Source: Minisyncoccota bacterium
Lineage (GTDB): Bacteria; Patescibacteriota; Minisyncoccia; Phycocordibacterales; JAQTLZ01
Length of the DNA stretch: 64,000 nt
Reading direction: 5' to 3'
Assembly: GCA_028714635.1 (NCBI GenBank)
Contig: JAQTLZ010000001.1
Span: 79,650 to 143,649 of the forward strand
Positions 17,968 to 52,817 of this stretch are shown piece by piece. The translations under genes were made by a program, and so were the position numbers. The first letter of the stretch is position 1. Each line of letters opens with the position of its first letter. The notes under the pieces were generated by a model, which worked only from the letters and a program-made list of their open reading frames with translations, searched no databases and had not been told where the DNA came from.

Positions 17968-18309
17968 TTATAAGCGCTCGAGCCAGTATGAGTTGGTTTT
18001 CGCATTACCAACTGCATAACACTTGGACTTTACCACATACTGCGCGCCGACTCGCAGCGTCGGACCCGGGGTGTTCACAAACACCCGAGTGCCATCCGCC
18101 GCTTCGAAGACAGATGTGTCTCCGATTTGCGCCAGGAGCGTATGCGGCTCGCCCTGGAGCTTGCTCATGTGGGCCGGTTTGCCTTCGGCATTGAGAACGA
18201 TCAGAGCAATCGCTATCGGGACACAGAGCAGCAGGCCGACGAACGCGAGTATGTGTACGCCTGACAGGGCGACAAAGATTCTTTTCGTTCTCGGAACTTT
18301 TATTCTCAT
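17968..18309 (-). CDS. Hypothetical small membrane-anchored protein (GC-rich orphan with strong SD)
   Basis: 113 aa: MRIKVPRTKRIFVALSGVHILAFVGLLLCVPIAIALIV... is an N-terminal TM anchor followed by a beta-rich domain. AGGAGGAGTGAAGTC lies before the ATG. GC is about 58% against ~42% for the neighbours. It has its own terminator. Confidence 0.55.
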   Translation of the reverse strand: MRIKVPRTKRIFVALSGVHILAFVGLLLCVPIAIALIVLNAEGKPAHMSKLQGEPHTLLAQIGDTSVFEAADGTRVFVNTPGPTLRVGAQYVVKSKCYAVGNAKTNSYWLERL

Positions 18310-18508
18310 GACTTCACTCCTCCTGTATTGCCTCACGCGGGCAAGCTCACACTTGGGGTCGAGCCCCTTCCAGAAGCCTTGGTGACAGGCTTTATACATG
18401 AAGAACTCTATCAAATTCATATCATTTTATTTTTAAAAAGTCAAATTTTTGATACCAGAAACTATCCACTAAAACCGAGAAAAAGCCCTTTCATTTTAAG
18501 GCTAAATT

Positions 18509-18517
18509 TGCTATAAT
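18509..18517 (+). promoter_or_regulatory. Extended -10 promoter (TGcTATAAT) for gyrB
   Basis: TGCTATAAT lies about 45 nt upstream of the gyrB ATG. There is no good -35. Confidence 0.4.
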
Positions 18518-18562
18518 AAGAGTACCAAAAGGGTGCTTTTTTGTTTGTATTTTCGCTCATAA

Positions 18563-20638: not shown

Positions 20639-20640
20639 AA

Positions 20641-20677
20641 CAAAAAAGCCCCGCGACCAAAATCGCGAGGCTTTTTT
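20641..20677. terminator. Bidirectional intrinsic terminator between gyrB (+) and def (-)
   Basis: AAAAAAGCCCCGCGA-CCAAAA-TCGCGAGGCTTTTTT has an A-run on one side and a T-run on the other. Confidence 0.65.
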
Positions 20678-21214: not shown

Positions 21215-21232
21215 AAGCCAATTCTACTATGC

Positions 21233-26950: not shown

Positions 26951-27265
26951 TTAGGGCAATGAACTTATGGCGATGATATCGCAGTGGTCTTTGCGCGGAG
27001 TCGCTCGGATTCCAGTGTGCTGGCTAAGCACCACGTAAAGTCCTTCTTCTCCAAGTTCCACGCTTATTCCTCGCGGTCCGACGACTATGCAATGATGAGC
27101 AAGTTCCAGGAGCACCTGGTCTACAAAGGCCCTGCACATCGCCTGTACACTGGCATCGTTACTCGCGAACTCTTCGCATGTAAACAAGAGCGGCTTTTTG
27201 TTCTCCAACCTTCCGTAGATCGCTCGCGCTACGGCGTCGGGACGAGAAAGATTCTCTGAAGCCAT
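26951..27265 (-). CDS. Hypothetical protein (GC-rich orphan with strong SD)
   Basis: 104 aa with no recognisable motif. GGAGGAACGTATC lies before the ATG. About 52% GC. Confidence 0.45.
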   Translation of the reverse strand: MASENLSRPDAVARAIYGRLENKKPLLFTCEEFASNDASVQAMCRAFVDQVLLELAHHCIVVGPRGISVELGEEGLYVVLSQHTGIRATPRKDHCDIIAISSLP

Positions 27266-27358
27266 GATACGTTCCTCCGGTTTCTGGTTGAGTTTCGGTG
27301 ACTAATAAAATACTAGCATGTGGCTTTTTTGTTTTCTAGTCTGTGATAGAGTAGCAAT

Positions 27359-28117
27359 GTGAAAAAGAAAGATACATCATGGGGGAATGTTGCGGGATGG
27401 TATGACGAACTTCTCTCGAAGGATTCCGACAGCTACCAATCTAAGGTTATTCTGCCGAACCTCCTTCGGCTTATGGAGATCAAAAAGGGCGAGTGGATAT
27501 TTGATATTGCTTGCGGACAGGGATTTTTTTCGCGGGAATTTGTAAAAGCGGGAGCGAATGTTGTCGGTTCGGATATCGCTCCAGAGCTTATTGCAATCGC
27601 TAAAAAAGACGCGCCCAAAGAAGCCATTTTTCATGTTGCTCCTTCGGATGATATTTCGTTTGAAGAGAATGAATCTTTCGATAAGGTAGTCTGTATCCTG
27701 GCGCTTCAAAATATCGAGAAACTTTCCGAAACACTAGCAGAAGCATCTCGGATACTGCGTAAGACAGGGAAGCTCTATCTGGTTCTCAACCATCCAGCAT
27801 TTCGCATCCCGCAAAAATCCGGCTGGGAGTTCGACGAGAAAAAGAAGATACAATTTCGCCGAGTGGACGAATATCTTTCAGAATCCCGCACCGAAATCGA
27901 TATGCATCCGGGTCAAAAAGAAAGTGAGCACACGGTCTCATTCCACCGCTCGCTCCAAGTCTATTTCAAAATGTTTCGTAAAAATAATTTGGCCGTAACC
28001 CGTCTCGAAGAATGGATTTCCCACAAGGCGAGCCAAAAAGGCCCGCGAGCGGTAGCGGAAGACAAAGCCCGCAAAGAAATTCCATTGTTTCTTTTTCTTG
28101 AGATAGTTAAAATTTGA
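27359..28117 (+). CDS. Class I SAM-dependent methyltransferase
   Basis: DIACGQGFFSREF is motif I (GxGxG). VVGSDIAPE is the post-I acidic residue. The length is typical for MTase_11/25 family members. Confidence 0.7.
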   Translation: MKKKDTSWGNVAGWYDELLSKDSDSYQSKVILPNLLRLMEIKKGEWIFDIACGQGFFSREFVKAGANVVGSDIAPELIAIAKKDAPKEAIFHVAPSDDISFEENESFDKVVCILALQNIEKLSETLAEASRILRKTGKLYLVLNHPAFRIPQKSGWEFDEKKKIQFRRVDEYLSESRTEIDMHPGQKESEHTVSFHRSLQVYFKMFRKNNLAVTRLEEWISHKASQKGPRAVAEDKARKEIPLFLFLEIVKI

Positions 28118-28178
28118 CTATTTTCTCCCAAAAAGATATTTTGGCATAAGAGGTAACACTTGGATTGAGGAGGTGGCG

Positions 28179-28478
28179 ATGGAACTACAGATTGGTGAAT
28201 GCTACATTTGTCCTGGGTGCTCTCAACCTTGGCTGTGCACTTCGGTGAATGTAGAGAAATGCCGTCTTGCTGGTCTTGCCCCCTCTGAAACTCCTAGGGG
28301 ACAAAAACGTTGCACATGTCTTCTTTGTATTGAAAAAGCCAAGAAGAGCAGCTCAAAGCATTTGGCGAAAAATATAGAGAGACGTCTTCAACATTTAAAC
28401 GGCTCAGCTTATCCTCCTTCTTTTAGGAGCAAGGTATCTTTAGCCGATGTTGTTGTGAGACGCCTTAAAAAGGATTAA
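28179..28478 (+). CDS. Hypothetical small Cys-rich protein (possible zinc ribbon)
   Basis: CYICPGC...C....CTCLLC. GGAGGTGGCG lies before ATG 28179. The ORF track starts 6 nt earlier at GTG. Confidence 0.35.
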   Translation: MELQIGECYICPGCSQPWLCTSVNVEKCRLAGLAPSETPRGQKRCTCLLCIEKAKKSSSKHLAKNIERRLQHLNGSAYPPSFRSKVSLADVVVRRLKKD

Positions 28479-32447: not shown

Positions 32448-32765
32448 TTATTCGTGACGTTCTCGTATTTCGTCACAGAAAAGTTCCAACAGGAATCGCT
32501 CCATGGAGATTTCTGTTGGGCGGGCACTTGTAAGCAACTCTTCCAGTGACATCCCCAAGACCTCCGCGGACTTGATGATGAATCTCCAACTGGCGATTTC
32601 CAAGTTTTCTTCGCCTTTCTCGATTTCCTCGAGGAGATCCGCGTCTATCCTATCCACCTTCACTCGGCGAACGAATTCTTCCCGAGGTATGCCGCACTCT
32701 TCTCTTTTCCTCCCGATTGCTGCTCCAATCGCAAATCTCGGATTGATGCACCTCTTTGCGCTCAT
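32448..32765 (-). CDS. XRE-family helix-turn-helix transcriptional regulator (GC-rich, strong SD)
   Basis: FAIGAAIGRKREECGIPREEFVRRVKVDRIDADLLEEIEKGEENLEIASWRFIIKSAEVLGMSLEELL has the Cro/C1-type HTH pattern. GGGGAGGATAC lies before the ATG. About 50% GC. Confidence 0.55.
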   Translation of the reverse strand: MSAKRCINPRFAIGAAIGRKREECGIPREEFVRRVKVDRIDADLLEEIEKGEENLEIASWRFIIKSAEVLGMSLEELLTSARPTEISMERFLLELFCDEIRERHE

Positions 32766-32882
32766 GGTATCCTCCCCGTGGTTTGTTGTGCTTTTTCCTC
32801 GCATAAAGATAGCATCCGGTACTCGTTCGTCAATTGTGGGCAAGAAAAAACGACCAGCCAGTAAAGGCGGGTCGTGAACGAA

Positions 32883-33347
32883 CTATATTCGAAATCTGGG
32901 GAACTTATCGGTGGGGAGGGGAAGGCTACAAGAGACTTCTCCTCCGATCATATCCTTTCCGAGTTCCTGCGCAATTTCTTTCAAGGATTGATTGGTCGCA
33001 TCATCTTGATCAAGAAAGAGAAGATATGCCCAGAGGCCTCGGCAGATTTTTTCTTCTGCATGTCTTTCGAAAATGAAGATGATGTCGTCCTCTTCCGATC
33101 TCTCTTTTAGGCAAAACCAGAACCTCTTTCCTTCGAGCTTGCCTATTACTACCCAAGCGCGGGCACGGCGCCCCTTTTCAGTCTTAAATGCTCCGGCCAA
33201 TTCCCCTGTCTTATGATCCAGGTTGATTCTCGCATTCCATTTTCCTCCCAATCGATTGGGAGGGCTAACATCAAAAGTTCCGCTCAAAAACACCTGTCCT
33301 TTTGCGTCCTTTCGCAGATTGACCCACGGCGCCGTTCTCTCTTCCAT
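32883..33347 (-). CDS. Hypothetical protein (GC-rich, strong SD), upstream partner of the XRE regulator
   Basis: 154 aa with no motif. GGGAGGAATCGCAC lies before the ATG. Confidence 0.45.
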   Translation of the reverse strand: MEERTAPWVNLRKDAKGQVFLSGTFDVSPPNRLGGKWNARINLDHKTGELAGAFKTEKGRRARAWVVIGKLEGKRFWFCLKERSEEDDIIFIFERHAEEKICRGLWAYLLFLDQDDATNQSLKEIAQELGKDMIGGEVSCSLPLPTDKFPRFRI

Positions 33348-33442
33348 GTGCGATTCCTCCCAATGGTTGTCTCGAATGATGTCAAATCTCTTTATAATTT
33401 ATCACATATTCAAAACGCGAAAAAACGTGGTAAGATTTTTAA

Positions 33443-34069: not shown

Positions 34070-34158
34070 CTGTGGAAAAGAGAGTAAAATAGATATCAGC
34101 AACATTGTGCAGTTAAATTGGAGTTTTTCCATTCACACTCTCGAAGGAGGGAACGGCC

Positions 34159-34374
34159 ATGACAAGCTCGATTCTCAATCCACAAGTGGGTGATGTGGAT
34201 CCAAAAGTAGGGAAATCAGATTGGGATTTCGGTGGAACATCGGAACGGCCTGCAGCTGTTGAGCTGCTTCAGATTCTTGGAAGGATGAGTAGCGTTGATC
34301 GCTCCGAATTCTTCTCAAAGAGGGCTGCAAAGCTGTTTCGTCATCGTTTCGATGTCCCGTCCGCTTGCAAATAG
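34159..34374 (+). CDS. Hypothetical small protein (strong SD)
   Basis: 71 aa. AAGGAGGGAACGGCC lies before the ATG. A CCCUCC...GGGGGG stem followed by a U7 run lies downstream (34395-34430). Confidence 0.4.
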   Translation: MTSSILNPQVGDVDPKVGKSDWDFGGTSERPAAVELLQILGRMSSVDRSEFFSKRAAKLFRHRFDVPSACK

Positions 34375-34471
34375 CTCCATTCAACTCCGTTCGCATTGTG
34401 CTCCCTCCTTTCTCACCGGGGGGACACTTTTTTTGAATTTTTCCGCTCTTGCGGATTTTTTGGTTTTACTC

Positions 34472-34480: not shown

Positions 34481-34552
34481 TAAAAGGGTAAGTTCCTTGT
34501 GAACAGGGAACAGGTCTCGTGGGCGCGAATGCGCAGAAAGGAGGATAGTGTC

Positions 34553-35008
34553 ATGGCTTTTGAGCAACAGCTAGTTGAGGCCACTCTTGCCGGTCTCAAA
34601 GGCGGGATGCTTCATTGGCAAACGCTGGGCTACTCCGAAGTCAGGGGTATAATCAAGAACTTGTCTCTCAGCGCAGGAGTAATTCAGGTGGATTTGTTGG
34701 AGGATCCTTTGACGGTTATACACGTCAAGGATAGGTTGGAGAGGCCGCTTTGCGGGGGTGAGCTCTCGCTTTGCAGAATTGTCACTAGTGAACCAACTTG
34801 CACAGGGGAGGAGAAAAATGGAGTGTTCAAGTTTGAGTGGCAGGATGAAGATCGGCGGTTTGTTGTCACACTCACTCCGCCGGAGAAGCCCAAGGACGAG
34901 AAGAAAGGTGAAAAGAAAGAGGGGGTTGCGACAGCGGCGAGCAAGCCCGCCTCCGAAAGTCCTTCTCAGCCATTTCGTTCTCCGCAGAGACCAAAGTCCC
35001 GCGCGTAA
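34553..35008 (+). CDS. Hypothetical protein (GC-rich, strong SD)
   Basis: 151 aa. AAAGGAGGATAGTGTC lies before the ATG. About 52% GC. Lys/Glu/Pro-rich C-terminal tail. The ORF-track start at 34499 is an extension. Confidence 0.45.
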   Translation: MAFEQQLVEATLAGLKGGMLHWQTLGYSEVRGIIKNLSLSAGVIQVDLLEDPLTVIHVKDRLERPLCGGELSLCRIVTSEPTCTGEEKNGVFKFEWQDEDRRFVVTLTPPEKPKDEKKGEKKEGVATAASKPASESPSQPFRSPQRPKSRA

Positions 35009-37108: not shown

Positions 37109-37534
37109 TCAAAGCGGTTGAAAATATGCCGCGTTGACGTAAGAGGAATTCTCGCCGGAGTCGCGGAAATCCTTCCCGTCTTTGTTTGCGATGAGGAAAC
37201 ATTGCTCTCTTCCTTTTCCAGTCGCAAATAAGACTTTGTACGGAGGCGGTCCAATCTCGGCGAGAATCGCCGACTGCACAGGCTCGACTGTCCTCTCCAT
37301 TATTCTTGAGATGGAAGCGAGCTCCGGGCTCCAATCCACCAACCTGACGACAACTTCTCCGGGCGATTCCTCTTCCGGCGGTACAATTCGAAGAAGAGGT
37401 TGCTCGTGTTTCTGACTTTGAGCTTTTTGAGTTAAGCCGATGCCGACGGCTTTCCTCTGACCTTTTCCGCGAACGCGCTTTTCTTTAGCCACTCCTTTTT
37501 TAGAGGAGCAGCTCCGATCCGTGACTGTACTCAT
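37109..37534 (-). CDS. Hypothetical basic protein (GC-rich) preceded by a G10 tract
   Basis: 141 aa with a Lys/Arg-rich N-terminus. On the minus strand the start region reads GGGGGGGGGGAACAATG. About 52% GC. Confidence 0.45.
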   Translation of the reverse strand: MSTVTDRSCSSKKGVAKEKRVRGKGQRKAVGIGLTQKAQSQKHEQPLLRIVPPEEESPGEVVVRLVDWSPELASISRIMERTVEPVQSAILAEIGPPPYKVLFATGKGREQCFLIANKDGKDFRDSGENSSYVNAAYFQPL

Positions 37535-37538: not shown

Positions 37539-37548
37539 CCCCCCCCCC
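37539..37548. repeat. Homopolymeric C10 (G10 on the coding strand) tract 4 nt upstream of a start codon
   Basis: Counted directly: ten consecutive C at 37539-37548. Confidence 0.9.
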
Positions 37549-39976: not shown

Positions 39977-41551
39977 ATGTTTTCACCTGCTATACAAAGG
40001 CTTGTAGACGATCTTAAGCACCAGTCGGGGAAAACTGGCTCTTTCGGTGGTTCTAGCGATGCTTTTATTAAGGTCAATAAATTAACGGGAAAAGCCGGCG
40101 CTTTTTATGAAAAAGTGCGCTATTTTGTTGATTATAAAGAAGAACATACGATTCGCCGTTCTGCAATCGAAAGAATCATCAAGCGAAAAGTGATGATCGA
40201 GATCGATAATAACGTCGGTCTTTCTCTTCTCGAAGAGTTGGTTGGCGGGGGATATTTGCCGAACGATCGCGTGGGCGCGGATGTTGCAAAAGACATTCAG
40301 CGAATCTTGAATAGATTTCTTATCGTCAAAAAACATATTGGCCCAAAACTGCTTCGGAATTTGAAATTAAAAAGCCGTCTCATTAATCTCGCAGCAACCG
40401 AAATAGATCTCTTCTTGTTTCCGCGTCCCAACGACAATCTTCTTGTCGAGGCTTTTTATTCGACTGTCAAAGGCTCAATAAAATATTCAGGCGAGCTTTC
40501 CAATATGCAATTCGGCAGACAACTTTATATTGCGTGCCGTCGCCTGCTTCTTCAAGATGATGATCCGACTGTCTTTTATGCGCTTTGGCTGAAATCTGTC
40601 CCGGAATGGCCGGTTATTTCCAGTGAAGCGGATTTGCAAAAACTGAACATCGATTTTTTCGTGCTCATCAAAAATATTATCCTTGAAATCGAAGATCCTA
40701 TCCGTTTTCAGATCCAAGCGAAGCTTCGAAATCACGGGCTCTATTTTTCGGTGCTCAAAGAAATTATCGATAAATACGGCGCTGAAAGCGAGCAGGTTTT
40801 GTCCGATAAGCACCATCTTGACGGCGATATTTCTGAAGTTCTCGATAAAAAATACAAAAAAGAAAATAACCGCATCAAAAAAAGCGGGAAGCGCGCTATC
40901 GTATATGTTTTTTGCACTAAAATCATTCTGGCATTTCTCCTTGAGTTGCCGTATGAACTTTTCTACATCCACTCTGTCAATTATGTTGCATTCGTAACTA
41001 ATATTCTTTTTCACCCGTTTCTCCTCTTTCTGATGACTAGAAATATAAAACCTCTCGGTGAGAAAAATACGAAAAAAATTACCGAGGGAATTCACAAGGT
41101 CCTCTATTCGAGCGATGTGAAGAAAATGTACGTAAAACCCTCAACATCCGGCATTCTTCTCGATACGACATTTTTCTTGCTTTACGGACTTCTTTTCCTT
41201 GTAAGTTTCGGCTGTATTTTGTGGGTCCTCCTGTCTCTCGGATTCAATGTTGTCGGTATTTTACTTTTCTTAACCTTCCTTACATTTGTCAGTTATTTCG
41301 GCCTGCGTATCCGCTACAATGCAGAAAGATGGAGGATTCGGGACGAAGACGAAAAAACCCTGACTCTTCTTTGGAATGTTTTTACTTTTCCGATCGTGCG
41401 AATGGGCAGATGGCTTTCTGTGAAATTTGCTTCAGTAAATGTCTTCGTCTTTGTGATGGATTTTCTTATTGAAGTGCCGTTCAAGCTTGTGCTCGCTACG
41501 TCAGACGGGTTTCTCTCATTCTTGAAAGAAAAACGCGACGAGACGTATTAA
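39977..41551 (+). CDS. Hypothetical protein, soluble N-terminal domain (~290 aa) plus a C-terminal multi-TM domain
   Basis: 524-aa ORF 42 nt after smc. At least five hydrophobic helices in the last 230 aa. No motif recognised. Confidence 0.45.
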   Translation: MFSPAIQRLVDDLKHQSGKTGSFGGSSDAFIKVNKLTGKAGAFYEKVRYFVDYKEEHTIRRSAIERIIKRKVMIEIDNNVGLSLLEELVGGGYLPNDRVGADVAKDIQRILNRFLIVKKHIGPKLLRNLKLKSRLINLAATEIDLFLFPRPNDNLLVEAFYSTVKGSIKYSGELSNMQFGRQLYIACRRLLLQDDDPTVFYALWLKSVPEWPVISSEADLQKLNIDFFVLIKNIILEIEDPIRFQIQAKLRNHGLYFSVLKEIIDKYGAESEQVLSDKHHLDGDISEVLDKKYKKENNRIKKSGKRAIVYVFCTKIILAFLLELPYELFYIHSVNYVAFVTNILFHPFLLFLMTRNIKPLGEKNTKKITEGIHKVLYSSDVKKMYVKPSTSGILLDTTFFLLYGLLFLVSFGCILWVLLSLGFNVVGILLFLTFLTFVSYFGLRIRYNAERWRIRDEDEKTLTLLWNVFTFPIVRMGRWLSVKFASVNVFVFVMDFLIEVPFKLVLATSDGFLSFLKEKRDETY

Positions 41552-41578: not shown

Positions 41579-41968
41579 TCAGATTCTGCCCTGAAGGCGC
41601 AGCGTCTCGAATTCTTGTTGTGTTATTTTACCTAATGTAAATAAGAGGTAATACACGCTTGACTGATTTGGTTCTGTGCAAAAATTTTCGATGAGAATAT
41701 CCACGATCTCCTGTCGCGTACTTATGATACTTCCGTGTTCTCTTTCGGACGCATGAAGACCAGAGAGGGCGAGTGAGACCATCTCGTCGAGAAGTGGCAA
41801 GGTCCGAGACATTTTCGTTCTTCGGCACTCTTTCGTAATAACCGTGATTTCTTTCCGTAGATCCTCTGCTCGGATCTGATCTCGCAGTGAAGCTGCAAGA
41901 TTTTTTCCCACAAAAGATTCCAAGTGCCGAAGAAGGCGTGGAATCTTGGCAAGTTTGCTCTTGTCCAT
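41579..41968 (-). CDS. Hypothetical protein (GC-rich, strong SD)
   Basis: 129 aa. GAGGAGGAAGGAAC lies before the ATG. About 50% GC. The ORF-track start at 42025 is an extension. Confidence 0.45.
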   Translation of the reverse strand: MDKSKLAKIPRLLRHLESFVGKNLAASLRDQIRAEDLRKEITVITKECRRTKMSRTLPLLDEMVSLALSGLHASEREHGSIISTRQEIVDILIENFCTEPNQSSVYYLLFTLGKITQQEFETLRLQGRI

Positions 41969-42031
41969 GTTCCTTCCTCCTCGGCTAGTATTAAAATCTA
42001 TCGAACACAGTGTTTCTGTCTCCACCTTACC

Positions 42032-44056: not shown

Positions 44057-44107
44057 TCGGCTACTATAGCAGAAAATACCTTGTTTTGTAAGGGTTTAAA
44101 GTAAATA

Positions 44108-44136
44108 TTGACATAAGTATATAAAAATGATAATAT
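44108..44136 (+). promoter_or_regulatory. Near-consensus sigma70 promoter TTGACA-17-TAATAT
   Basis: ttgaca taagtatataaaaatga taatat lies about 100 nt upstream of ATG 44239. Confidence 0.5.
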
Positions 44137-44238
44137 ACTGTTATTGTTGGATTGGAATCCAGCAGGCATCGCATCTAGTCCCGTCGGAGGCCAAAACCCC
44201 GCGGAAAAAGACGGAGCGAAAAAGAAAGGAGTAGTAGC

Positions 44239-44685
44239 ATGCAGATTCGAGTGTACCTTAAGGCGGGCGTTGCACAGAATGAAAAGTTCCGAGACGTTGC
44301 GCCAGGGAGTATTTATTGGGGAGAGAAAAACTTTCCGCTTTCCCGGGATAAATTTGGCAGGCTTTTTTTCACCATGGAATCAGGTGAGTCGATTCCCGAG
44401 GATTTTTTCGAATCGGTGGAGTTTTTCAGCCTCTCTGCCTCTTGGCTGAAAGTGGCTCATCGTTGCACAGGAGAGTACCAAGATGTTCCTGATGAGGTCG
44501 TCCATGAAGAAGGACGAGCCCGCGGTTTTCTGGATCTTCGTCCAAGTGGTAGTGGTCCAGAGTATTACCTCCGGCTTTCTACCCTCAACGGCGGCGACGA
44601 GAATGATCTCGAAAATTTGTATTGGCGAATCCGTGAAGGGAACATCGCTCCGGTTACCAGTTGGGAGGAGAGACAAAAAAAGTAG
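44239..44685 (+). CDS. Hypothetical protein (GC-rich, SD AAGGAG)
   Basis: 148 aa. AAAGGAGTAGTAGC lies before the ATG. It sits behind its own consensus promoter and a structured ~95-nt leader. Confidence 0.45.
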   Translation: MQIRVYLKAGVAQNEKFRDVAPGSIYWGEKNFPLSRDKFGRLFFTMESGESIPEDFFESVEFFSLSASWLKVAHRCTGEYQDVPDEVVHEEGRARGFLDLRPSGSGPEYYLRLSTLNGGDENDLENLYWRIREGNIAPVTSWEERQKK

Positions 44686-44792
44686 TAAGGTTGGGATACT
44701 GGCCTCGTATGGAAAAGCTTCGGCTCCTACATGCGAGGCTTTTTCATTTGCCCAAATTTGACCTTTCAGGCTCATTTTGCTACTATCTTCGG

Positions 44793-45167
44793 GTGTTAAA
44801 AATCAGATTACAGCGAGTAGGACGCAAGCATGAACCGGTTTTCCGGGTTGTTTTGACTGATTCTAAGAACTCTACCAAGAGCGGAAAGTACCTTGAAGTA
44901 CTCGGCTCTTTTGATGCTCGAAGCCATGAACGACAGACTGTGGATGCAGAGCGAGTAAAGCACTGGATTGCACAGGGCGCGGAACCAACCGACACGATGC
45001 ACAATTTCCTCATTAGCCAGAAAATCATTACCGGAAAGAAACGAAACGTACTGCCAAAGAAATCTCCTATTAAGAAAGAGGAGGCTGCGAAGGCACCAGA
45101 GGCTCCTAAGGCGGAGGCTGCTCCTGAAGCTCCAAAAGAAGAGAAAAAAGAGGAAGCAAAAGCATAA
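44793..45167 (+). CDS. rpsP: Ribosomal protein bS16 with a Lys/Ala/Pro/Glu-rich C-terminal extension
   Basis: VLKIRLQRVGRKHEPVFRVVLTDSKNSTKSGKYLEVLGSFD is canonical S16. GTG start at 44793. The upstream in-frame stretch in the ORF track (from 44661) overlaps the previous gene and is not S16-like. Confidence 0.8.
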   Translation: MLKIRLQRVGRKHEPVFRVVLTDSKNSTKSGKYLEVLGSFDARSHERQTVDAERVKHWIAQGAEPTDTMHNFLISQKIITGKKRNVLPKKSPIKKEEAAKAPEAPKAEAAPEAPKEEKKEEAKA

Positions 45168-45380: not shown

Positions 45381-46436
45381 ATGAAATTATTTCTTGAAGA
45401 CGGGTCATCATACGAAGGAAAAAGCTTTGGCGCACCAGTTTCGATGAACGGCGAAGTAGTTTTTAATACGAGCATGGTTGGATATGTGGAAAGTCTGACC
45501 GACCCGTCCTATGCAGGCCAAATTCTCGTCTGTACCTATCCGCTCATTGGAAATTACGGCGTACCAAGTTCTTCTTTGTTCGAATCAAAAAAAATTCAAA
45601 TTGCCGGACTTGTAGTATCGGAATATTCAGAAAATTATTCGCACCACGAAGCGAAACAATCTCTCGCAGAGTGGCTCAAAAAAGCTAAAATCCCGGCAAT
45701 TACCGGAGTCGATACGCGCGCAATCACCAAAAAACTTCGCGAACGCGGAGTGATGCTTGGTGCGCTTGCCGAAGAAGTGCCGAAAAAATTTACCGATCCG
45801 AATGAAGAAAATCTTGTCGCAAAAGTTTCCACAAAAGAGAAACAAAAATATGGCTCGGGCAAGATAAAAATCATTGCTATTGATTGCGGAATGAAAGAAA
45901 ATATCGCACGCTCTCTTGCCCGCGACGGTGTTACCGTTGTTCGCGTGCCCTGGAATTATGATTTTACGAAAGAAAAATATGACGCCCTTTTTATTTCCAA
46001 TGGTCCCGGCGATCCCGCGATGTGCACAACGACAATTGAGAATATCCAAAAGGCGATGAAAATGAAAAAGCCAATCCTCGGTATTTGTCTTGGAAACCAG
46101 CTTCTCGCCCTTGCTTCAGGCGGGAAGACGTTCAAATTAAAATATGGACATCGCTCGCAAAATCAGCCTTGCACGGACCTCCTCACAGGAAGGTGCTATA
46201 TCACTTCGCAGAATCATGGATTTGCGGTAAACGCAAAAAGTCTGCCGAAAGATTGGAAGGTGTGGTTTACCAACGCGAATGATGGAAGTGTGGAGGGTAT
46301 TATGCACAAATCTCTCCCTTTTCGAGCCGTTCAATTTCATCCGGAAGCAGCACCGGGTCCGACAGATACCGCGTGGATCTTCGATGAATTTTTAAATTCG
46401 ATCAAGATTCACCCGCCAAAGTTTTCGGGTGCATAA
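45381..46436 (+). CDS. carA: Carbamoyl-phosphate synthase small (glutamine amidotransferase) subunit
   Basis: [36 protein letters not shown] (CPSase small N-domain). [15 protein letters not shown] (GATase Cys triad). HGFAV...FHPEA. Confidence 0.9.
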
Positions 46437-46518
46437 ATAAAAATCCTTAATCAATTAATCCAATTTTCTATAAAGATTTAATGTGTTACAAGTCATAGTA
46501 GAAAATTTCGGCGGGTAA

Positions 46519-49500
46519 ATGAAAAAGAATCATAAAATAAAATCAATACTTCTTCTTGGTTCCGGCGGACTCAAAATCGGCCAAGCGGGAGAATTTGATT
46601 ATTCCGGCTCACAGGCGATCAAAGCATTCAAAGAAGACGGCCTTCGAGTGGTCCTCATGAATCCAAATATCGCGACAGTTCAAACCGATGAAGGATTTGC
46701 CGATAAAGTGTATTTTCTCCCGCTCACTTTGGAATATGCTGAGAAAATAATTGCCGATGAGCGCCCCGATGCCATCGCCCTTTCTTTTGGCGGACAGACG
46801 GCGCTGAACCTCGGACTCGAACTTGAAGAAAGCGGAATTTTGGAAAAATATAAAGTGATCGTGTTGGGAACTCCAACTTCAGCTATTCGCGATACGGAAG
46901 ACCGCGCCCTTTTTACGGAACGCTTGAAAGAAATTGATGTTCACACGGCGAGAAGTTTTGCCACATCGAATACGAAAGAAGCCCTTGAAGCTGGCAAGAA
47001 AATCGGCTTTCCGCTCATGATGCGCTCTGGTTTTGCTTTGGGTGGCGAGGGTTCAGGGATGATAAAAAATCAAAAAGACCTTGAGATAAAAACGAAAGAA
47101 GTATTTCGCTCTGTCTCACAAGTTCTCATCGAAGAATATCTTGGCGGATGGAAAGAAGTTGAATATGAAGTGGTGCGGGATGTGTCTGACAACTGCATCA
47201 CTGTTTGTAATATGGAAAATGTCGATCCGATGGGAATTCACACAGGCGAATCAATCGTAGTTGCGCCATCGCAAACGCTTTCCAATCGCGAGTACCATAT
47301 GCTTCGCGAAGTGGCTATCAAAACGATCCGCCATCTTGGAATTGTTGGTGAATGCAATATTCAATACGCTCTCAATCCTGAAACGAGCGAGTATAGGGTC
47401 ATTGAAGTGAATGCTCGGCTTTCGCGCTCTTCCGCTCTCGCTTCGAAAGCAACTGGATACCCGCTCGCATTCGTCGCCGCAAAACTTATTTTGGGATACA
47501 CCTTGCCCGAGCTTAAAAACAATGTAACGAAAAGTACGACTGCATGCTTTGAACCAGCGCTCGATTATCTCGTCATGAAAATTCCGCGGTGGGATTTGGC
47601 GAAATTTGAAAATGCCGCGACGCGTATCGGCACGGAGATGAAAAGCGTCGGGGAAGTGATGGCGATCGGAAGAAGTTTTGAGGAAGTGCTTCAGAAGGGG
47701 ATTCGGTCGCTGAATATCGGTGCAGATGGTTTTACCGCCCAGCATAATGGGGGATTTATAATCGCTGATGTTGAGGGAGAGATACGCGAGCCGACCACAC
47801 GAAGAATTTTTGCGATTGCTCAAGCACTCCGTTCGGGCATGAGCGTTGCGAGAATCCATGAACTTTCAAAGATCGACAAGTGGTTTCTCGAAAAAATGAA
47901 AAATATCATTCTCACAGAGGAGAAGATACAAGAGGCCAGGAAACTCGATGACACTCTTTTGAAGGAAGCGAAACAGAACGGATTTTCTGATCTCCAGATC
48001 GCAACTCTTCACAAAACTACGGAAGAAAGAATCCGTACCATTCGAAAAGGCAGAAAAATTCTGCCGGTTGTAAAACAGATCGATACCCTTGCCGGAGAAT
48101 TTCCCGCGCGGACAAATTATTTGTATGTGACTTACCATGGTACGGAAGATGACGTAAAACCTGGGAAGCGGGAGATCGCTGTTATTGGAAGCGGGCCATA
48201 TTGTATCGGATCTTCGGTTGAATTTGATTGGTCATGCGTGCAGGTTTTGAAAACACTTCGCAAAGAAAAACGCCAGACTGTGATGATAAATTGCAATCCC
48301 GAAACGGTTTCCACTGATTATGATGAATCGGATCGGCTTTATTTCGAAGAACTTACGCTTGAGCGAGTGCTCGATATCGCGGATTTTGAAAAACTTGAAG
48401 GAATTGTAGTTTCTACTGGCGGGCAGATCGCCAATAACCTTGCGCTTCTGCTCAAAAATAACGGCTTGAAAATTCTCGGCACCTCTCCCGATGATATTGA
48501 TAGAGCGGAAGATAGGCACACATTCTCAAAACTTCTTGATCTTCATGAAGTTGATCAACCGCAGTGGATCGAGGCAACCAACAGAGAAAAGGCGCTTCGC
48601 TATGCGAGTGAATTTGGCTATCCCGTTTTGGTCCGGCCTTCATATGTGCTTTCCGGTTCGGCTATGAGTGTTGCTTATGATGAGCAGTCTCTTATTCAAT
48701 GTTTGGCAAAAGCGGCCGATATTTCAAGTGATCATCCTGTAGTCATTTCAAAATTTATCGAGAACGCACGCGAGATAGAAATCGATGGCGTTGCACAAAA
48801 CGGAAAACTTGTCATTTATGCCATTACCGAACACGTGGAAAATGCCGGCACTCACTCCGGTGATGCTACAATTGTGCTCCCTCCTCAACGCACCTTCCTT
48901 GAGACAGTGAGGCGCGCTAAAAAAATTACAAAAGCGGTGATTGCCGAGCTTGAAATTACCGGTCCATTTAATATTCAATTTTTGGCAAAAGATAATCGTA
49001 TTCAGGTTATTGAATGCAACGTCCGGGCTTCGAGAAGTTTTCCATTTGTTTCAAAAGCTACTGGATATAATTTTATCGAAATTGCCACTCGGGCAATGCT
49101 CGGGAAGGATGTGCGCGGGGAATATAAAACGCTGGACCTTGATCATGTGGTTGTAAAGTCACCCCAATTTTCATACGGACGCATCAAAGGCGCTGATCCG
49201 ATCGGTTATGTGGAGATGGGTTCGACGGGAGAGGTGGCCTGTTTCGGAGATTCATTTGGAGAAGCACTTATTTCTTCAATGCAGGCATCGGGAATGCGGC
49301 TGCCGAAGAAAAATGTGCTCATCTCGCTCGGCAAGGAAGAAAATAAAATAAAACTTTTGTCGGCGCTTCACTTGCTTGCACAGCTTGGACTTACTCTTTA
49401 TGCGACGGAACATACCGCTGATTTTTTGAATGAGCAGAATATAAAATGCGAAAAAGTTTTTAAAATTCACACCGGTTCAACTCCGAATGTGCTCTCGCTT

Positions 49501-49677
49501 ATTGAAGGCGGGAATCTTGACCTTATTATTAATATTCCGGCCCGAGCACTTTCCCGCGAACGCGAAGACGGCTTTATCATCAGACGCAAAGCGATTGATC
49601 ACAATATTCCTCTTATCACCAATCGCCAGCTTGCCGAGGCTTTTATCGTCGCGCTTGCGGAGAAACACAAGAAATAA
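46519..49677 (+). CDS. carB: Carbamoyl-phosphate synthase large subunit
   Basis: LLLGSGGLKIGQAGEFDYSGSQA with a duplicated ATP-grasp (second copy IAVIGSGPYCIGSSVEFDWS). MGS-like C-terminal domain. Confidence 0.9.
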   Translation: MKKNHKIKSILLLGSGGLKIGQAGEFDYSGSQAIKAFKEDGLRVVLMNPNIATVQTDEGFADKVYFLPLTLEYAEKIIADERPDAIALSFGGQTALNLGLELEESGILEKYKVIVLGTPTSAIRDTEDRALFTERLKEIDVHTARSFATSNTKEALEAGKKIGFPLMMRSGFALGGEGSGMIKNQKDLEIKTKEVFRSVSQVLIEEYLGGWKEVEYEVVRDVSDNCITVCNMENVDPMGIHTGESIVVAPSQTLSNREYHMLREVAIKTIRHLGIVGECNIQYALNPETSEYRVIEVNARLSRSSALASKATGYPLAFVAAKLILGYTLPELKNNVTKSTTACFEPALDYLVMKIPRWDLAKFENAATRIGTEMKSVGEVMAIGRSFEEVLQKGIRSLNIGADGFTAQHNGGFIIADVEGEIREPTTRRIFAIAQALRSGMSVARIHELSKIDKWFLEKMKNIILTEEKIQEARKLDDTLLKEAKQNGFSDLQIATLHKTTEERIRTIRKGRKILPVVKQIDTLAGEFPARTNYLYVTYHGTEDDVKPGKREIAVIGSGPYCIGSSVEFDWSCVQVLKTLRKEKRQTVMINCNPETVSTDYDESDRLYFEELTLERVLDIADFEKLEGIVVSTGGQIANNLALLLKNNGLKILGTSPDDIDRAEDRHTFSKLLDLHEVDQPQWIEATNREKALRYASEFGYPVLVRPSYVLSGSAMSVAYDEQSLIQCLAKAADISSDHPVVISKFIENAREIEIDGVAQNGKLVIYAITEHVENAGTHSGDATIVLPPQRTFLETVRRAKKITKAVIAELEITGPFNIQFLAKDNRIQVIECNVRASRSFPFVSKATGYNFIEIATRAMLGKDVRGEYKTLDLDHVVVKSPQFSYGRIKGADPIGYVEMGSTGEVACFGDSFGEALISSMQASGMRLPKKNVLISLGKEENKIKLLSALHLLAQLGLTLYATEHTADFLNEQNIKCEKVFKIHTGSTPNVLSLIEGGNLDLIINIPARALSREREDGFIIRRKAIDHNIPLITNRQLAEAFIVALAEKHKK

Positions 49678-49694
49678 CGAGGGTTTTACTGTTC

Positions 49695-49723: not shown

Positions 49724-49779
49724 AATTTCATTACAAGAACGACCGCACACTCAAAAAGTGGAGGTTTAAGGCAAATATC

Positions 49780-50106
49780 ATGAACGAACAAGACACGCAG
49801 TTTCTCGAGTACACAGTGAAGGCTTTAGTAGACAATCCAGGGGACGTAAAGATTGTGCGAACGGTGGATGAGATGGGAGTTCTCATGACTCTCTCTGTCA
49901 ATCCAGCGGACATGGGAAAGATCATCGGACGAATGGGTAATACTGCAAAGGCTATTCGAACATTACTGCGAGTTGTCGGAATGAAGAATAATGCTCGAGT
50001 AAATTTGAAGATCAATGAGCCGGAAGGAGGAATGAAAAAAGAATACCCCTCTCAAACCCCGAATATGAAAAGTGTTGATGAAGCTATGGCGGATTTGAAG
50101 ATCTAA
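49780..50106 (+). CDS. KH-domain RNA-binding protein (YlqC/UPF0109 family)
   Basis: GKIIGRMGNTAKAIRTLLRVVG contains the KH GxxG loop. This is the small KH protein that normally follows rpsP. Confidence 0.75.
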   Translation: MNEQDTQFLEYTVKALVDNPGDVKIVRTVDEMGVLMTLSVNPADMGKIIGRMGNTAKAIRTLLRVVGMKNNARVNLKINEPEGGMKKEYPSQTPNMKSVDEAMADLKI

Positions 50107-50177
50107 TACAAAAATTTCAAGAAAAAATCTCCGAAAGGAGATTTTTTCTTTTGTTCTTAAAATGCTAGCATTTAGGA

Positions 50178-50441: not shown

Positions 50442-50977
50442 TGGAAATTTCTATTTTGGGGGAGAAGGTAGAAATACAAGAAAGTTCGCGAGCTCGGCAT
50501 TTGCGGGTTATTGTCGAAGTTGATGGGAAGGTAAGAGCAGTTATGCCGGTGGGGTATTCGGAGCGGAAACTTGCGGCGTTTTTCGAAGAGGTACGCCCCC
50601 GGATCGAGAAGAAAGTTTTGTATTTTCAAAAGAGGAAACACAAAATTCATATCAAATCGAGTCGAGCCGATTTTTTGCGCCTTAAAAAATCGGCGCTCGC
50701 GCTCGCAATCTCCCGGCTCGAACATTTCAATCAGTTTTACAATTTTAAATATAAAAAAGTTTCAATTCGTAACCAAAAAACCCGCTGGGGAAGCGCGTCG
50801 CGGAAAGGAAATCTTCAATTTAATTACAAAATCGCCCTTCTCCCGCCGGAGCATCGCGACTACATTATCGTCCACGAGCTTTGCCACTTGGGCGAGTTCA
50901 ATCACTCCCGCGCATTTTGGGCATTGGTCGCAAAACAGATTCCTCGGTGGAAAGAGTTGCGGAAGAGTCTTCACTAG
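50441..50977 (+). CDS. YgjP/DUF45-family zinc metallohydrolase
   Basis: HELCHLGEFNHSRAFW contains the HExxH...NHS motif of the M48-like DUF45 family. It overlaps the previous stop (ATGG). Confidence 0.65.
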   Translation: MEISILGEKVEIQESSRARHLRVIVEVDGKVRAVMPVGYSERKLAAFFEEVRPRIEKKVLYFQKRKHKIHIKSSRADFLRLKKSALALAISRLEHFNQFYNFKYKKVSIRNQKTRWGSASRKGNLQFNYKIALLPPEHRDYIIVHELCHLGEFNHSRAFWALVAKQIPRWKELRKSLH

Positions 50978-50987
50978 TAGGGTTGTT

Positions 50988-51731
50988 CTATTCCGGAGAG
51001 GGAAGTGAATCCCAAAGTGTTTCAAAAAGTATTTTTCTGGCTTCTGCGAATTTCTGATCTTCTACAATGAAAAGGGAACCCTCGTATCTCCGTGCAAGAA
51101 AAGCCACAAATTTAGTCGAAATAATTTCAGTAGAAGAAAATATCCCGTGTTTTTCCGGAAGGAGCCGAGAAACGCGGTTTTCAGAAATGTCCTTCTTGGT
51201 AATCTTTCTTGCATAGATTGTATCAGTAATAATCTGTCTGCTTTTGATCCCTAACTTCTTTTTTTTGTCGATAATGTCGTCTAAAATATATTTTTCTTTC
51301 ACAAAATCCAGAAAGCTTCGTCCATCGGTGATAATGAGATACTCCCGCTCCTTCGACTCAAATAGCATATTCCAAACTTTTTTGAATCCCGCTGGCCCGG
51401 AAAGAAAAGAAATACGGGGGAGGGGATTTCGCTTTTTTTGAACCGAATCGTGTCCTTGCATCGCCATTGCGTCTTGGATTTTTTCTTCCGCCAATTTCGC
51501 GAGCTCTTCTGGGGCGATTGCTTTCCAATACGTTCTTTTACCCCGAAGTATTTCAAAGATTGCCCCAGAATTCTCAAGTTCCGGAAGAAGGGAATAGAGG
51601 GTCGTTCGTTTTATTCCCGATGCTACGGCAATTTCCGCCATAGTCGCTTCATTAAGAGAAATAAGCGCGGCATAAGCTTTAGCTGATTTCTCTGTGAGCC
51701 CGCAGGCGAGAGCTATATTTTCTGGCTTCAT
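50988..51731 (-). CDS. TrmB-family transcriptional regulator
   Basis: N-terminal wHTH LTEKSAKAYAALISLNEATMAEIAVASGIKRTTLYSLLPELENSG matches the TrmB N-domain pattern. About 150-aa C-terminal domain. Confidence 0.65.
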   Translation of the reverse strand: MKPENIALACGLTEKSAKAYAALISLNEATMAEIAVASGIKRTTLYSLLPELENSGAIFEILRGKRTYWKAIAPEELAKLAEEKIQDAMAMQGHDSVQKKRNPLPRISFLSGPAGFKKVWNMLFESKEREYLIITDGRSFLDFVKEKYILDDIIDKKKKLGIKSRQIITDTIYARKITKKDISENRVSRLLPEKHGIFSSTEIISTKFVAFLARRYEGSLFIVEDQKFAEARKILFETLWDSLPSPE

Positions 51732-51887
51732 ATCTAGAGTTTACAGGAAAAGGAAAATTTTGTCCAAATTTTCGACAAAACCCATTGTGAGCTTGTCTAG
51801 AAAAGGTACATTGAAAGAGGAAATGCGAAAAGGTTCTTTTACAAGCATTTACAAACAGGGCTATCATGCCCGGAAAGGAGGCCTATC

Positions 51888-52817
51888 ATGGCCGACAGGT
51901 ACGGATTGTTTCTCGGAGGCGTGTCCGGTTCAGGCAGCCCGAGAGTGTTTCAGAAGATGTGGTTTCAAGGGGAGACGCTGTTCAAAGCTCCTCTCGAACG
52001 CGGTCGTTTCGGCATTCATACCACGTCGCTTGGAATCGCGGCGGGCGACACGGGGATCTTTGTGGATTCGGGAAGCGGCATTACTGACGTTGCTGAGTTT
52101 CTGAAGCTTCTCGAAGTTCCTTCTGTCTACGGACTTCAAACTCACGAACACAAGGACCATATCGATACGCTCCACAGAAATCCATTCTTAGGGCAATCGG
52201 CAGGAATGCTCAAAGAGTATTTCTGGCCGAGACTTCTCGGACAGTCTGCTGATACGTTCCAGAGATCGTTTATGGATTGGCCGGTCGGACCGGTGGAGAC
52301 GAAAAGGCCGAAGATCTTTATGCCCGAATCTCTGCTCGATCTCGGCGCCGTGAAAGTGGCGACGTATTTGCAAAACCACGGCTTTGATGTGGTTCGCAAG
52401 TCTCCTGGTTTCTCTCTGGGTTTCAGAGTGGAGACGGCTCGGGGAACAATCGTTGTCGCTACAGATCATGAAATCGGACAGGACCCGACGTACCGAGAAA
52501 AATGCGCAGCATTTTTCTCGGGAGCAAAGATCCTCTATCACGATCTGCAGTACCGTGCTCGTGAGTATGATGGTACGGTCGGAATATGCGGTGGCACTCC
52601 GATGCCTCGAAAAGGCTGGGGGCATTCCACGCCTGAAATGCTTCACGAAGTCGTGAGGCTTTGTAAGGAGCCGATCGGCACTCTTATTCTCGGACACCAT
52701 GATCCGGAGCGGCACACTGGGGACCTCGAAAAGTTTGAAGGCGAAGTCCAGAAACTTTTCACTCCTCTGTGCGCCAAGGTCCAATTTGGCCGGGAAGGTA
52801 AGTACTATAGTTTGTAA
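51888..52817 (+). CDS. Metallo-beta-lactamase-fold hydrolase (GC-rich, strong SD)
   Basis: LQTHEHKDH is the HxHxDH motif, with later His/Asp ligands (ATDHE, GHHD). AAAGGAGGCCTATC lies before the ATG. About 53% GC. Confidence 0.65.
   Translation: MADRYGLFLGGVSGSGSPRVFQKMWFQGETLFKAPLERGRFGIHTTSLGIAAGDTGIFVDSGSGITDVAEFLKLLEVPSVYGLQTHEHKDHIDTLHRNPFLGQSAGMLKEYFWPRLLGQSADTFQRSFMDWPVGPVETKRPKIFMPESLLDLGAVKVATYLQNHGFDVVRKSPGFSLGFRVETARGTIVVATDHEIGQDPTYREKCAAFFSGAKILYHDLQYRAREYDGTVGICGGTPMPRKGWGHSTPEMLHEVVRLCKEPIGTLILGHHDPERHTGDLEKFEGEVQKLFTPLCAKVQFGREGKYYSL

Follow-up and report, generated by a model that had tools for sequence, protein, structure and literature searches.

The stretch of DNA analysed here, which we refer to as the window, is a 64,000-nucleotide (nt) chromosome segment of a Paceibacteria bacterium of the Candidate Phyla Radiation (CPR), taken from contig JAQTLZ010000001.1 and with a GC content of 44.1%. 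Pfam identified the core genes gyrB, def, a sortase, thrS, dnaE, rnhB, rpmF, a nusB-NUDIX fusion, rnc, smc, rnr, rpsP, carAB, trmD, rpoB, rpsB, tsf, pheST, rplY and rpmE. Set between these conserved genes are eleven short genes, numbered o1 to o11 in order of position, which an original prediction made from the letters of the window had singled out as GC-rich, preceded by a Shine-Dalgarno (SD) box and poor in recognisable motifs. We found that these genes, together with a twelfth, form separate cassettes that come and go between sister species, and that the core genes around them carry promoters placed as expected for leaderless mRNAs.

A DnaE query returned 80 syntenic loci, all from Patescibacteria metagenome-assembled genomes (MAGs) labelled as Paceibacteria/Parcubacteria or as Taylor-, Zambryski-, Nomura- or Kaiserbacteria, with a best match of 69% identity. 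In addition to DnaE, gyrB, thrS, rnhB, nusB, rnc and smc match among these loci. Four closer relatives were chosen via graded matches to a conserved hypothetical protein of 524 amino acids (aa), namely locus L086 from the sister species and loci L088, L089 and L091. The backbone order dnaE-rnhB-rpmF-nusB-rnc-smc-hypothetical-rnr-rpsP-KH is constant in the window and these four relatives, and the slots between the genes vary. Several window products are also recorded in a 'Candidatus Pacebacteria' MAG. Family-profile annotation of the window proteins revealed no integrase or transposase, and no rRNA gene lies within the window.

All eleven genes start with ATG, and a GGAGG, AGGAG or GGGAGG box, or a run of ten G residues in the case of 37109-37534, ends 4-8 nt upstream. 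Duplex energies, computed against the canonical anti-SD CACCUCCUUU for a table of 58 genes, ranged from -8.5 to -16.0 kcal/mol in the eleven, compared with a mean of -2.0 (standard deviation 2.6) in the other 47 (Mann-Whitney p = 5e-7). An SD 4-9 nt before each of the eleven had been predicted, and these values confirm it, as they do the predicted lack of one before gyrB, rpoB, rpsB, tsf, thrS, dnaE, smc, def, carA, trmD and the sortase. Core genes inside operons (rnc, carB, pheT, the neighbours of trmD, S2/Ts and others) also have no SD, their energies lying above -7.7. Across the window 11.7% of GGAGG sites are followed by an ATG and an open reading frame (ORF) of at least 55 aa, compared with ~3% for control pentamers. 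An unbiased scan for SD, start codon and ORF outside known genes recovered the same genes and one more, at 17512-17721(-), and the density of SD-led genes comes to ~1 per 5.5 kb. The sole other gene with an energy below -8 is the KH-domain gene at 49780, whose GGAGG lies 15 nt from the start; this element, GTGGAGGTTTAAGGCAAATATC at 49758-49779, does not differ between the window and L086 and is almost unchanged in L089, with the GGAGG too distant for a normal SD. The SD-stimulated prfB frameshift was also looked for; the release-factor gene at 8863-9831 consists of one continuous, apparently leaderless ORF with no such site, which is uninformative on whether the anti-SD works.

Each SD-led gene forms a separate unit, consisting of a TTGACA-type -35 element and a -10 element, a leader of 30-95 nt (from the predicted -10 to the start), the SD, an ORF of 69-309 aa and a hairpin followed by a T-run, where promoters and terminators are motif-level predictions. 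The cassettes lie among genes such as gyrB, thrS, dnaE, rnhB, rpmF, nusB, rnc, smc, rnr, rpsP and trmD, whose order is shared by 80 species. Private promoters and terminators and a position in the gaps between conserved genes had been part of the original prediction, and both are borne out by the motif scans and the annotated neighbours.

The added cassette (17512-17721(-)) encodes a Cys-rich protein of 69 aa behind an SD (AGGGAGA, 17727-17733) 5 nt before the ATG; it has a GC content of 0.519, an upstream TATAAA -10-like box and, after the stop codon, a terminator hairpin of -19 kcal/mol with a T-run. Beside it lies o1 (17968-18309(-); SD AGGAGGA at 18318-18324 with an 8-nt spacer; GC 0.547, third-position GC (GC3) 0.632), which encodes a 113-aa protein with an N-terminal membrane anchor and a hydropathy peak at residue 29. 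Its promoter, TTGACT-17-TATGAA, is ~95 nt upstream and its terminator hairpin reaches -22 kcal/mol; no family match was found for it and no viral relative in a viral-contig scan. The 104-aa orphan o2 (26951-27265(-), GC 0.527) has the SD GGAGGA at 27273-27278 with a 7-nt spacer, and a terminator. The strongest duplex, -16.0, belongs to o3 (28179-28478(+); SD GAGGAGG at 28167-28173; promoter TTGACT-17-TATTTT at 28114-28142), a zinc-ribbon-like protein of 99 aa with 8 Cys residues.

A putative XRE-like helix-turn-helix (HTH) protein of 105 aa is encoded by o4 (32448-32765(-); SD GGGGAGGA at 32770-32777), between the promoter TTGACG-16-TATCTT at 32833-32806 and a terminator at 32417-32395. Its match to HTH_31 is sub-threshold (E = 0.0049, 17.6 bits, Pfam cut-off 27) and it has no NCBIfam match. 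The start originally chosen for o4 is supported, since the upstream ATG chosen by the annotation pipeline PGAP in the sister genome adjoins the -10 box and thus lies upstream of the likely transcription start. Next comes o5 (32883-33347(-); SD GGGAGGA at 33355-33361), a hyper-divergent 154-aa orphan for which a search of 5.8 billion proteins returned only the gene itself. On the other strand are o6 (34159-34374(+); SD AAGGAGGG at 34144-34151; terminator 34404-34423), a 71-aa orphan, and o7 (34553-35008(+); SD AAGGAGGA at 34538-34545), a hyper-divergent 151-aa orphan whose family numbers three members, itself and two relatives, among 1.84 billion representatives. An antisense 73-aa ORF at 34175-34396(-) was rejected as a gene, its apparent SD (AGGAGGG) being the complement of the o6 terminator stem.

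The 141-aa basic orphan o8 (37109-37534(-)) has a TTGACA promoter, the run of ten G residues at 37539-37548 as its SD and a terminator of -19.7 kcal/mol; no relative was found in a viral-contig scan. PGAP gives it two different starts in two assemblies (141 and 127 aa), and slippage in the G run could alter its length and switch translation on or off. The remaining orphans are the helical 129-aa o9 (41579-41968(-); SD GAGGAGGA at 41975-41982; terminator 41574-41556), which has an SD but is not GC-rich, and the acidic 148-aa o10 (44239-44685(+); SD AAGGAG at 44226-44231; terminator -20 kcal/mol), whose promoter, TTGACA-17-TAATAT at 44108-44136, is the closest match in the region. The last and longest, o11 (51888-52817(+); SD AAGGAGG at 51875-51881), encodes a 309-aa hydrolase of the metallo-beta-lactamase (MBL) fold and is divergent from a TrmB-family regulator at 50988-51731(-). 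It matches Lactamase_B_2 at 27.1 bits (cut-off 27), contains an HEHKDH sequence corresponding to the metal-binding HxHxDH motif, and has homologs with PF12706/PF00753; no sequence relative was found in the PDB.

The products of the set range from a putative HTH protein (o4) and an MBL hydrolase (o11) to a membrane-anchored (o1), a zinc-ribbon-like (o3) and small basic or acidic proteins. Apart from o4 and o11, no member of the set (nine of the eleven, or ten of the twelve) matched anything in Pfam, NCBIfam, PHROGs or PADLOC, in agreement with the scarcity of motifs noted originally; PHROGs and PADLOC detected no defence, phage or toxin family in the set. Paralogy among the eleven was rejected, as an all-against-all BLASTP comparison showed no similarity, and AlphaFold2 predictions from single sequences were unusable (pLDDT 45 and 52 for o5 and o9).

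Small ORFs with no homologs are often miscalls, and a promoter, gene and terminator of unusual GC content is the classic anatomy of a phage moron. The set might therefore consist of spurious ORFs, derive from a chimeric contig, or be the remnant of a prophage. We consider this very unlikely and largely refuted. Over 5.2 kb the window matches a contig of MAG GCA_028711105.1 at 99.96% identity, so that the same cassettes occur in independent assemblies. Ortholog lengths are conserved, o4 and o11 are under purifying selection (dN/dS, the ratio of non-synonymous to synonymous divergence, is 0.16 and 0.07 against the sister species), and the SD-led ORFs have codon-position GC structure. Housekeeping genes in conserved order lie on every flank, nothing in the set matches PHROGs, and viral-contig scans with o1, o2, o8 and o10 returned no relatives.

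Base composition also separates the set from the core. The eleven genes have a mean GC content of 49.9%, compared with 43.3% for the other genes (p = 1e-5), and a mean GC3 of 0.511 compared with 0.418 (p = 4e-4). The original prediction had placed the set at 48-58% and the core at 40-43%. The rise holds for the set as a whole; these ranges were overstated (43.7-54.7% and 36.2-49.6%), and gene by gene the claim stands for nine but fails for o3 (GC 0.437, GC3 0.35) and o9 (GC 0.454), which fall within the core range. The shift is synonymous, with an observed orphan GC3 of 0.522 against 0.421 expected from the orphan amino acids and core codon preferences. In a leave-one-out likelihood test of codon usage on 56 genes the SD-led genes took 12 of the top 13 ranks, grouping apart from the rest, and the highest log-likelihood ratio of all belonged to the added cassette. 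The only non-SD gene with codon usage like that of the SD set encodes a 138-aa protein that weakly matches an HNH endonuclease (11918-12334), and follows the sole tRNA gene of the window, a tRNA-Thr (anticodon TGT) at 11801-11875.

The core genes have a different kind of start. Ahead of the start codon of ~15 core genes in the window, and ending 6-7 nt from it, lies a TAnnnT box that often follows a TG. At rnr, for example (start codon 44056; box region tgcTATAGTagccgaATG), CTTACA-18-TATAGT, with a TG, spans 44063-44092(-) and the -10 stops 6 nt short of the ATG; def, the sortase, rnhB, TrmB, trmD, both methyltransferases, smc and further genes are arranged likewise. Among 504 conserved non-SD genes of the relatives the hexamer lies 6 nt from the start in 11.5% and 7 nt from it in 6.3%, a sharp peak above the background of ~2%, and the distance histogram for the SD-led genes of the relatives has no -10 box at 6-7 nt. 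This position of the -10 box would suggest that core mRNAs are leaderless, with transcripts beginning at the start codon itself, and leaderless promoters would in turn explain why the core has no SD. The predicted cassette mRNAs, having leaders, could not use this route, which agrees with the distinct expression class that had been offered as one explanation of the set. The start of rpsP is probably the GTG at 44793 rather than the ATG at 44709; a TTGACC-17-TACTAT promoter (window 44758-44793) ends 6 nt before it, so that this gene too would be leaderless, and from this GTG the Pfam S16 domain would begin near residue 8.

We compared the slots across relatives. A tblastn search of the 80 syntenic loci, all from other Paceibacteria species, gave no match for any of the eleven genes, compared with matches in 27-80 loci for adjacent core genes; among genes inside the fetched range, 0 of 8 SD-led and 13 of 16 core genes were matched (Fisher p ~2e-4). 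In the four close relatives the slots are empty, hold positional orthologs (96% down to 33% identical) or have been refilled by unrelated SD-led, GC-rich genes, including QueD and DapA in the sister species, a ParB-like protein elsewhere, and orphans. Nearly every occupant is SD-led and GC-richer than its neighbours. Five of the eleven genes have positional orthologs in the sister species, of which o11 (96%) and o4 (91%) are the most similar. The sister ortholog of o5 is an SD-led gene of 158 aa with 47% identity, that of o7 is 33% identical with its 5' leader hairpin and terminator conserved, and those of o9 in L086 and L088 measure 129-130 aa (35-40% identity), all with GGAGG boxes. No ortholog of o6, o8 or o10 was found in the sister species. 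The o6 cassette is missing from the sister genome as a clean gap, a 420-nt indel, and the o8 cassette, ~530 nt long, is cleanly inserted when compared with L086 and L088, with no direct repeats visible at either pair of junctions. Elsewhere the o2 slot holds an unrelated 95-aa SD-led gene in L088, o3 is missing from L088 together with a HAD gene, and the o10 slot holds unrelated genes of 216 aa (L086), 174 aa (L089) and 134 aa (L091). In alignment with related loci the genes behave as insertions.

Other exchanges were seen along the same backbone. In the window carA-carB (45381-49677) occupy the slot that in the sister species holds the SD-led, GC-rich dapA (L086 15958-16881), and the sister queD (L086 9509-9886), also SD-led, lies between smc and the gene for the 524-aa protein, where the window slot is empty. 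The 524-aa protein (39977-41551), next to smc, is conserved in the CPR, with at least 174 homologs that span its full length at 38-84% identity in genomes of the Parcubacteria type; it matched nothing in Pfam or NCBIfam. In three relatives it is followed by a conserved low-GC gene of 65-66 aa (L086 11607-11807, L088 11601-11798, L089 5402-5599), 82-85% identical among them and with a -10-like box immediately 5' of its start codon. The window has no copy of this small gene, and o9 directly adjoins the gene for the 524-aa protein.

The sister genome also allowed us to measure divergence. Core genes show a synonymous divergence (dS) of 0.4-0.9 and a non-synonymous divergence (dN) of 0.01-0.1, whereas o5, o7 and o9 have a dN of 0.45-0.72 and saturated dS. 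Nucleotide identity is ~90% across core genes, cassette promoters, the o7 leader hairpin and terminators, and falls abruptly to 45-57% within the coding sequences (CDSs) of o5 (~57%, together with ~40 nt upstream) and o7, with no indels. Diversity-generating retroelements or repeats were set aside as a cause of this hyper-divergence, which spans whole CDSs, and no reverse transcriptase was found in the window. The diverged ORFs have stayed intact, which argues that their proteins matter, and the GC3 of o7 is high in both copies, at 0.57 and 0.59. Two processes would fit the pattern at o5 and o7: alleles may be replaced from an outside pool by recombination in the conserved flanks, or strong diversifying selection may act together with a compositional bias that is sustained. 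A single ancient import undergoing slow amelioration would not fit.

The sharp boundaries of this drop, with promoters, leaders and terminators otherwise conserved, raise the question of whether the slots are simply hot spots at which alleles are swapped between conserved flanks, with GC-biased gene conversion raising GC3 locally. The dS of o4 and o11 (0.25-0.27), which is below that of most core genes, would fit a recent exchange, although codon constraint is also possible. Such recombination leaves the SD boxes unexplained, and equally the low-GC accessory genes with no SD (the HAD gene at 0.362 and extra methyltransferases) that also vary between relatives. As an account of the whole set we think it improbable.

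It is also possible that leader, SD and GC-rich codons are not foreign leftovers but features of a native class of genes, kept by selection and translationally apart from the leaderless housekeeping genes, for example through conditional 30S-type initiation under the control of a regulator. The SD is retained in positional orthologs whose CDSs have fallen to 33-47% identity, GC3 is high in both copies of saturated ortholog pairs, and o4 resembles an XRE-type regulator, all of which would be expected of such a class. The absence of all eleven genes from 80 other species would not, nor would their variable presence even between sister species. Ordinary enzymes, QueD and DapA, bear this signature in the relatives and appear to be additions there, and there is no known mechanism that selects for higher GC3 in such genes.

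To follow the pattern beyond these relatives, one simple, uniform ORF and SD rule was applied to all loci, and a gene found in at most two other loci was counted as rare. Across 85 related loci (1388 ORFs) the SD-led ORFs are raised by 2.9% in GC and 5.4% in GC3 over genes of their own locus (p ~1e-8); most of the 'conserved SD-led' calls in this survey are internal false starts. Among rare genes the GC3 difference is +7.3% for those with an SD and -1.6% for those without (p = 6e-12). The association of SD, rarity and high GC recurs in ~200 related loci, including contigs whose 16S rRNA has no anti-SD.

The o11 gene is not an orphan in this wider sample, as homologs were recovered at 38-54% identity. 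In all five contexts recovered (the window, the sister species, L084, L213 and one contig from ENA) the MBL gene is divergently paired with a TrmB-family regulator. The L213 gene, 39% identical to o11, has an AGGAG box and a GC content of 0.505 among neighbours at 0.38-0.42, and its TrmB partner is low in GC, has no SD and appears leaderless. In two further small families (L012/L037 and L034/L007) both members are SD-led at 27-29% identity. The persistence of SD and GC at 27-39% identity argues that the SD-led, GC-rich state is a stable property of families, which either circulate as cassettes within the clade or are under selection. This conserved pair and these families speak for a native, selected class; the L084 MBL gene is GC-rich but has no clear SD, and departs from it. 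Taking these points together with those from the sister species, we doubt that native selection accounts for the set.

How the boxes might be read depends on the 16S rRNA. A subgroup of Parcubacteria has been reported to lack CCUCCU at the 16S 3' end (Tsurumaki et al. 2022, PMC9297842). That loss is reproduced here in the same clade. Both syntenic relatives with a 16S end (L067 and L080) have no anti-SD, and in a metagenome scan for the helix-45 sequence of these two (L093-L212) 119 of 120 16S ends had no CCUCC, with tails that have degenerated in more than one way, such as GGAAUAUUUCAAG, GGAUCAUUUUUUU and GGAUCACUACAUU, a proportion biased by a search pattern that was itself derived from anti-SD-less examples. 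Only L151 keeps the anti-SD, GGAUCACCUCCUUUC (GGATCACCTCCTTTC), and the tail of L153, GGATCACTTCCAT, is intermediate. In the passages searched, Tsurumaki et al. 2022 (PMC9297842) is concerned with rRNA and ribosomal proteins only, and neither leaderless core promoters nor the coexistence of SD-led accessory genes with an anti-SD-less 16S was found mentioned there.

On the anti-SD-less contigs GGAGG followed by ATG and an ORF is ~2-fold enriched (34 of 870 sites, compared with 14 of 870 for control motifs), and 29 strong SD-led ORFs are raised by 3.7% in GC (p = 1e-4). Five of these contigs (L105, L150, L198, L199 and L202) carry several GC-richer genes led by a perfect AGGAGG beside leaderless-looking neighbours. 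The SD-led class is thus also present where the ribosome cannot pair with the SD in the usual way. In eight unrelated contigs (L105, L106, L128, L131, L169, L172, L195 and L199) a small SD-led ORF lies 330-650 nt past the 16S 3' end; the proteins seem unrelated by eye, and the site may be another cassette slot.

These observations open a further explanation, in which the lineage's own 16S has no CCUCC tail, the leadered mRNAs are started independently of the SD, as the operon-internal core genes would be, and GGAGG and GC-rich codons are traces, themselves inert, of genes taken in from SD-using organisms and replenished by continuing exchange. The anti-SD-less 16S ends and their agreement with the published loss point this way, as do the AGGAGG-led ORFs on the same contigs, the operon-internal core genes with no SD, and the diverged block of o5, which includes the SD region and would suggest that SD and CDS were imported as one unit. 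Set against this, one related 16S keeps its anti-SD, and the density of SD-led genes in the window is ~5x that of the pooled anti-SD-less contigs. GGAGG is also kept at the right spacing in every ortholog examined and in L213. Retention over a neutral divergence of dS 0.4-0.9 is not what would be expected of an unselected motif, which should not last. A vestigial SD is a serious contender, though on balance we judge it unlikely. If the 16S of the source lineage ends in ...GGAUCACCUCCU, the anti-SD is kept and SD use would be canonical; if its tail is degenerate like GGAAUAUUUCAAG, the boxes would be vestigial or read in some other way.

SD-led ORFs beside anti-SD-less 16S genes, and the persistence of the SD across saturated divergence and across genera, allow one more reading. 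GGAGG may be kept under selection before flexible genes despite the loss of the anti-SD, the box being read otherwise than by the 16S 3' end, or the genes being partitioned between two routes of initiation. We regard this as a speculative and rather remote proposal.

The reading that we favour, by a modest degree of confidence, is that the SD-led genes are autonomous cassettes exchanged horizontally as the flexible part of a leaderless genome. The genome would then have two tiers. The first would be a conserved, syntenic core expressed from leaderless promoters, with the -10 ending 6-7 nt before the start, or as SD-less genes inside operons. The second would comprise the twelve monocistronic units, each with a sigma-70-type promoter, a 30-95-nt leader, an SD 4-8 nt before the ATG, a short ORF and an intrinsic terminator. 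Sitting in intergenic slots of a rigid backbone, these cassettes would make up the flexible genome of the lineage, the slots being filled, emptied and refilled between sister species. Their occupants would be lineage-restricted and share a GC-richer synonymous usage, some remaining stable (o4, o11) and others diverging to 33-47% identity. Composition and patchy distribution suggest that the cassettes entered, and continue to be exchanged, by horizontal transfer and recombination from a GC-richer pool in which SD-led initiation is the norm. On this reading the ribosome would also read the SD of the cassettes.

Several points weigh against this proposal. No donor or mobility gene was found, and PHROGs, PADLOC and the four viral-contig scans (o1, o2, o8, o10) were negative. 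Most members have no relatives anywhere, as the searches with o5 and o7 illustrate. Five of the eleven cassettes were already present before the sister species split off. A gene imported once, long ago, should have ameliorated toward the core GC3 of 0.42, so that the high GC3 of both copies of the saturated o7 pair is unexpected. An MBL gene that keeps its SD and a GC content ~10% higher beside a low-GC, leaderless TrmB gene at 39% identity looks like maintenance rather than the signature of a donor. With 119 of 120 related 16S ends devoid of an anti-SD, the SD may go unread in the clade. The repeated acquisition of small foreign genes that had first been proposed therefore stands in part. The set is coherent, outside the core and insertion-like, with no member in 80 loci, clean indels at o6 and o8 and refilled slots. 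That its members are recent imports does not hold for the five with sister orthologs, among them o11 with its TrmB/MBL pair in distant CPR genomes, and the proposed higher-GC, SD-using donor was not identified, o5 having no relative and o7 two.

The cassettes bear comparison with several known systems. Phage morons are said to be autonomous promoter-gene-terminator units lying between conserved phage genes. Like them, the cassettes are single genes of atypical composition with their own promoter and terminator, between conserved neighbours and with an empty junction in a close relative. In contrast to morons their backbone is a cellular housekeeping chromosome (dnaE, rnhB, rnc, smc, rnr, rpsP), no phage families were found, nor viral relatives in the scans with four members, and they differ from that backbone in the mode of translation initiation as well. 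Horizontally acquired genes and genomic islets have atypical GC content and codon usage and are patchily distributed between conserved genes. The cassettes share all of this; unlike islets, they are single-gene units with no mobility genes and are GC-richer rather than AT-richer than the host, and their signature persists in saturated ortholog pairs and in the deeply conserved TrmB/MBL pair.

Mixed leaderless and SD-led initiation is found in Actinobacteria and Deinococcus, the 'group C' of GeneMarkS-2, and Mycobacterium reportedly has a leaderless transcriptome. As in these genomes, many genes have a -10 immediately 5' of the start and leadered genes have an SD. The SD of those genomes, however, serves leadered and operon-internal core genes, whereas here it is confined to accessory cassettes of distinct codon usage. 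Ribosomes of Bacteroidia are reportedly blind to the SD, with a subset of genes that bears it. A small SD-bearing gene subset alongside SD-blind ribosomes is described for Bacteroidia in PMC13000457, among others. The likeness lies in a nearly SD-free genome whose few strong-SD genes form a separate translational class. The difference is that Bacteroidia possess an anti-SD, which is sequestered, and their SD sits on conserved ribosomal-protein genes, while here the SD precedes variable orphans and the anti-SD has been deleted from the 16S of most relatives.

The pattern is real and broader than was first noticed: a clade that is largely losing the anti-SD combines an apparently leaderless core with an SD-led, GC-rich accessory layer of fast turnover. 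The leaderless explanation of the core, the clade-wide pattern and the loss of the anti-SD from most related 16S genes had not been part of the original prediction. Little seems to have been written on gene expression in the CPR, although it makes up a large share of bacterial diversity, and in the literature searched we found no description of leaderless initiation for Parcubacteria, Patescibacteria or CPR genes, nor of SD-led initiation for Parcubacteria or Patescibacteria. The set also poses a puzzle, namely how genes of a defined class with canonical SD boxes are translated in a clade reported to lose the anti-SD. Were the genes partitioned between two routes, the SD could act as a translational switch for acquired or host-interaction genes in minimal cells. 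If the cassettes are indeed an exchanged, flexible layer, the prediction of start sites would improve, PGAP having mis-started at least o4 and o8, and the combination of leader, SD and GC-rich codons would mark fast-turnover genes from sequence alone, allowing thousands of MAGs to be mined cheaply. Such genes are the likeliest place to find functions in host interaction and defence.

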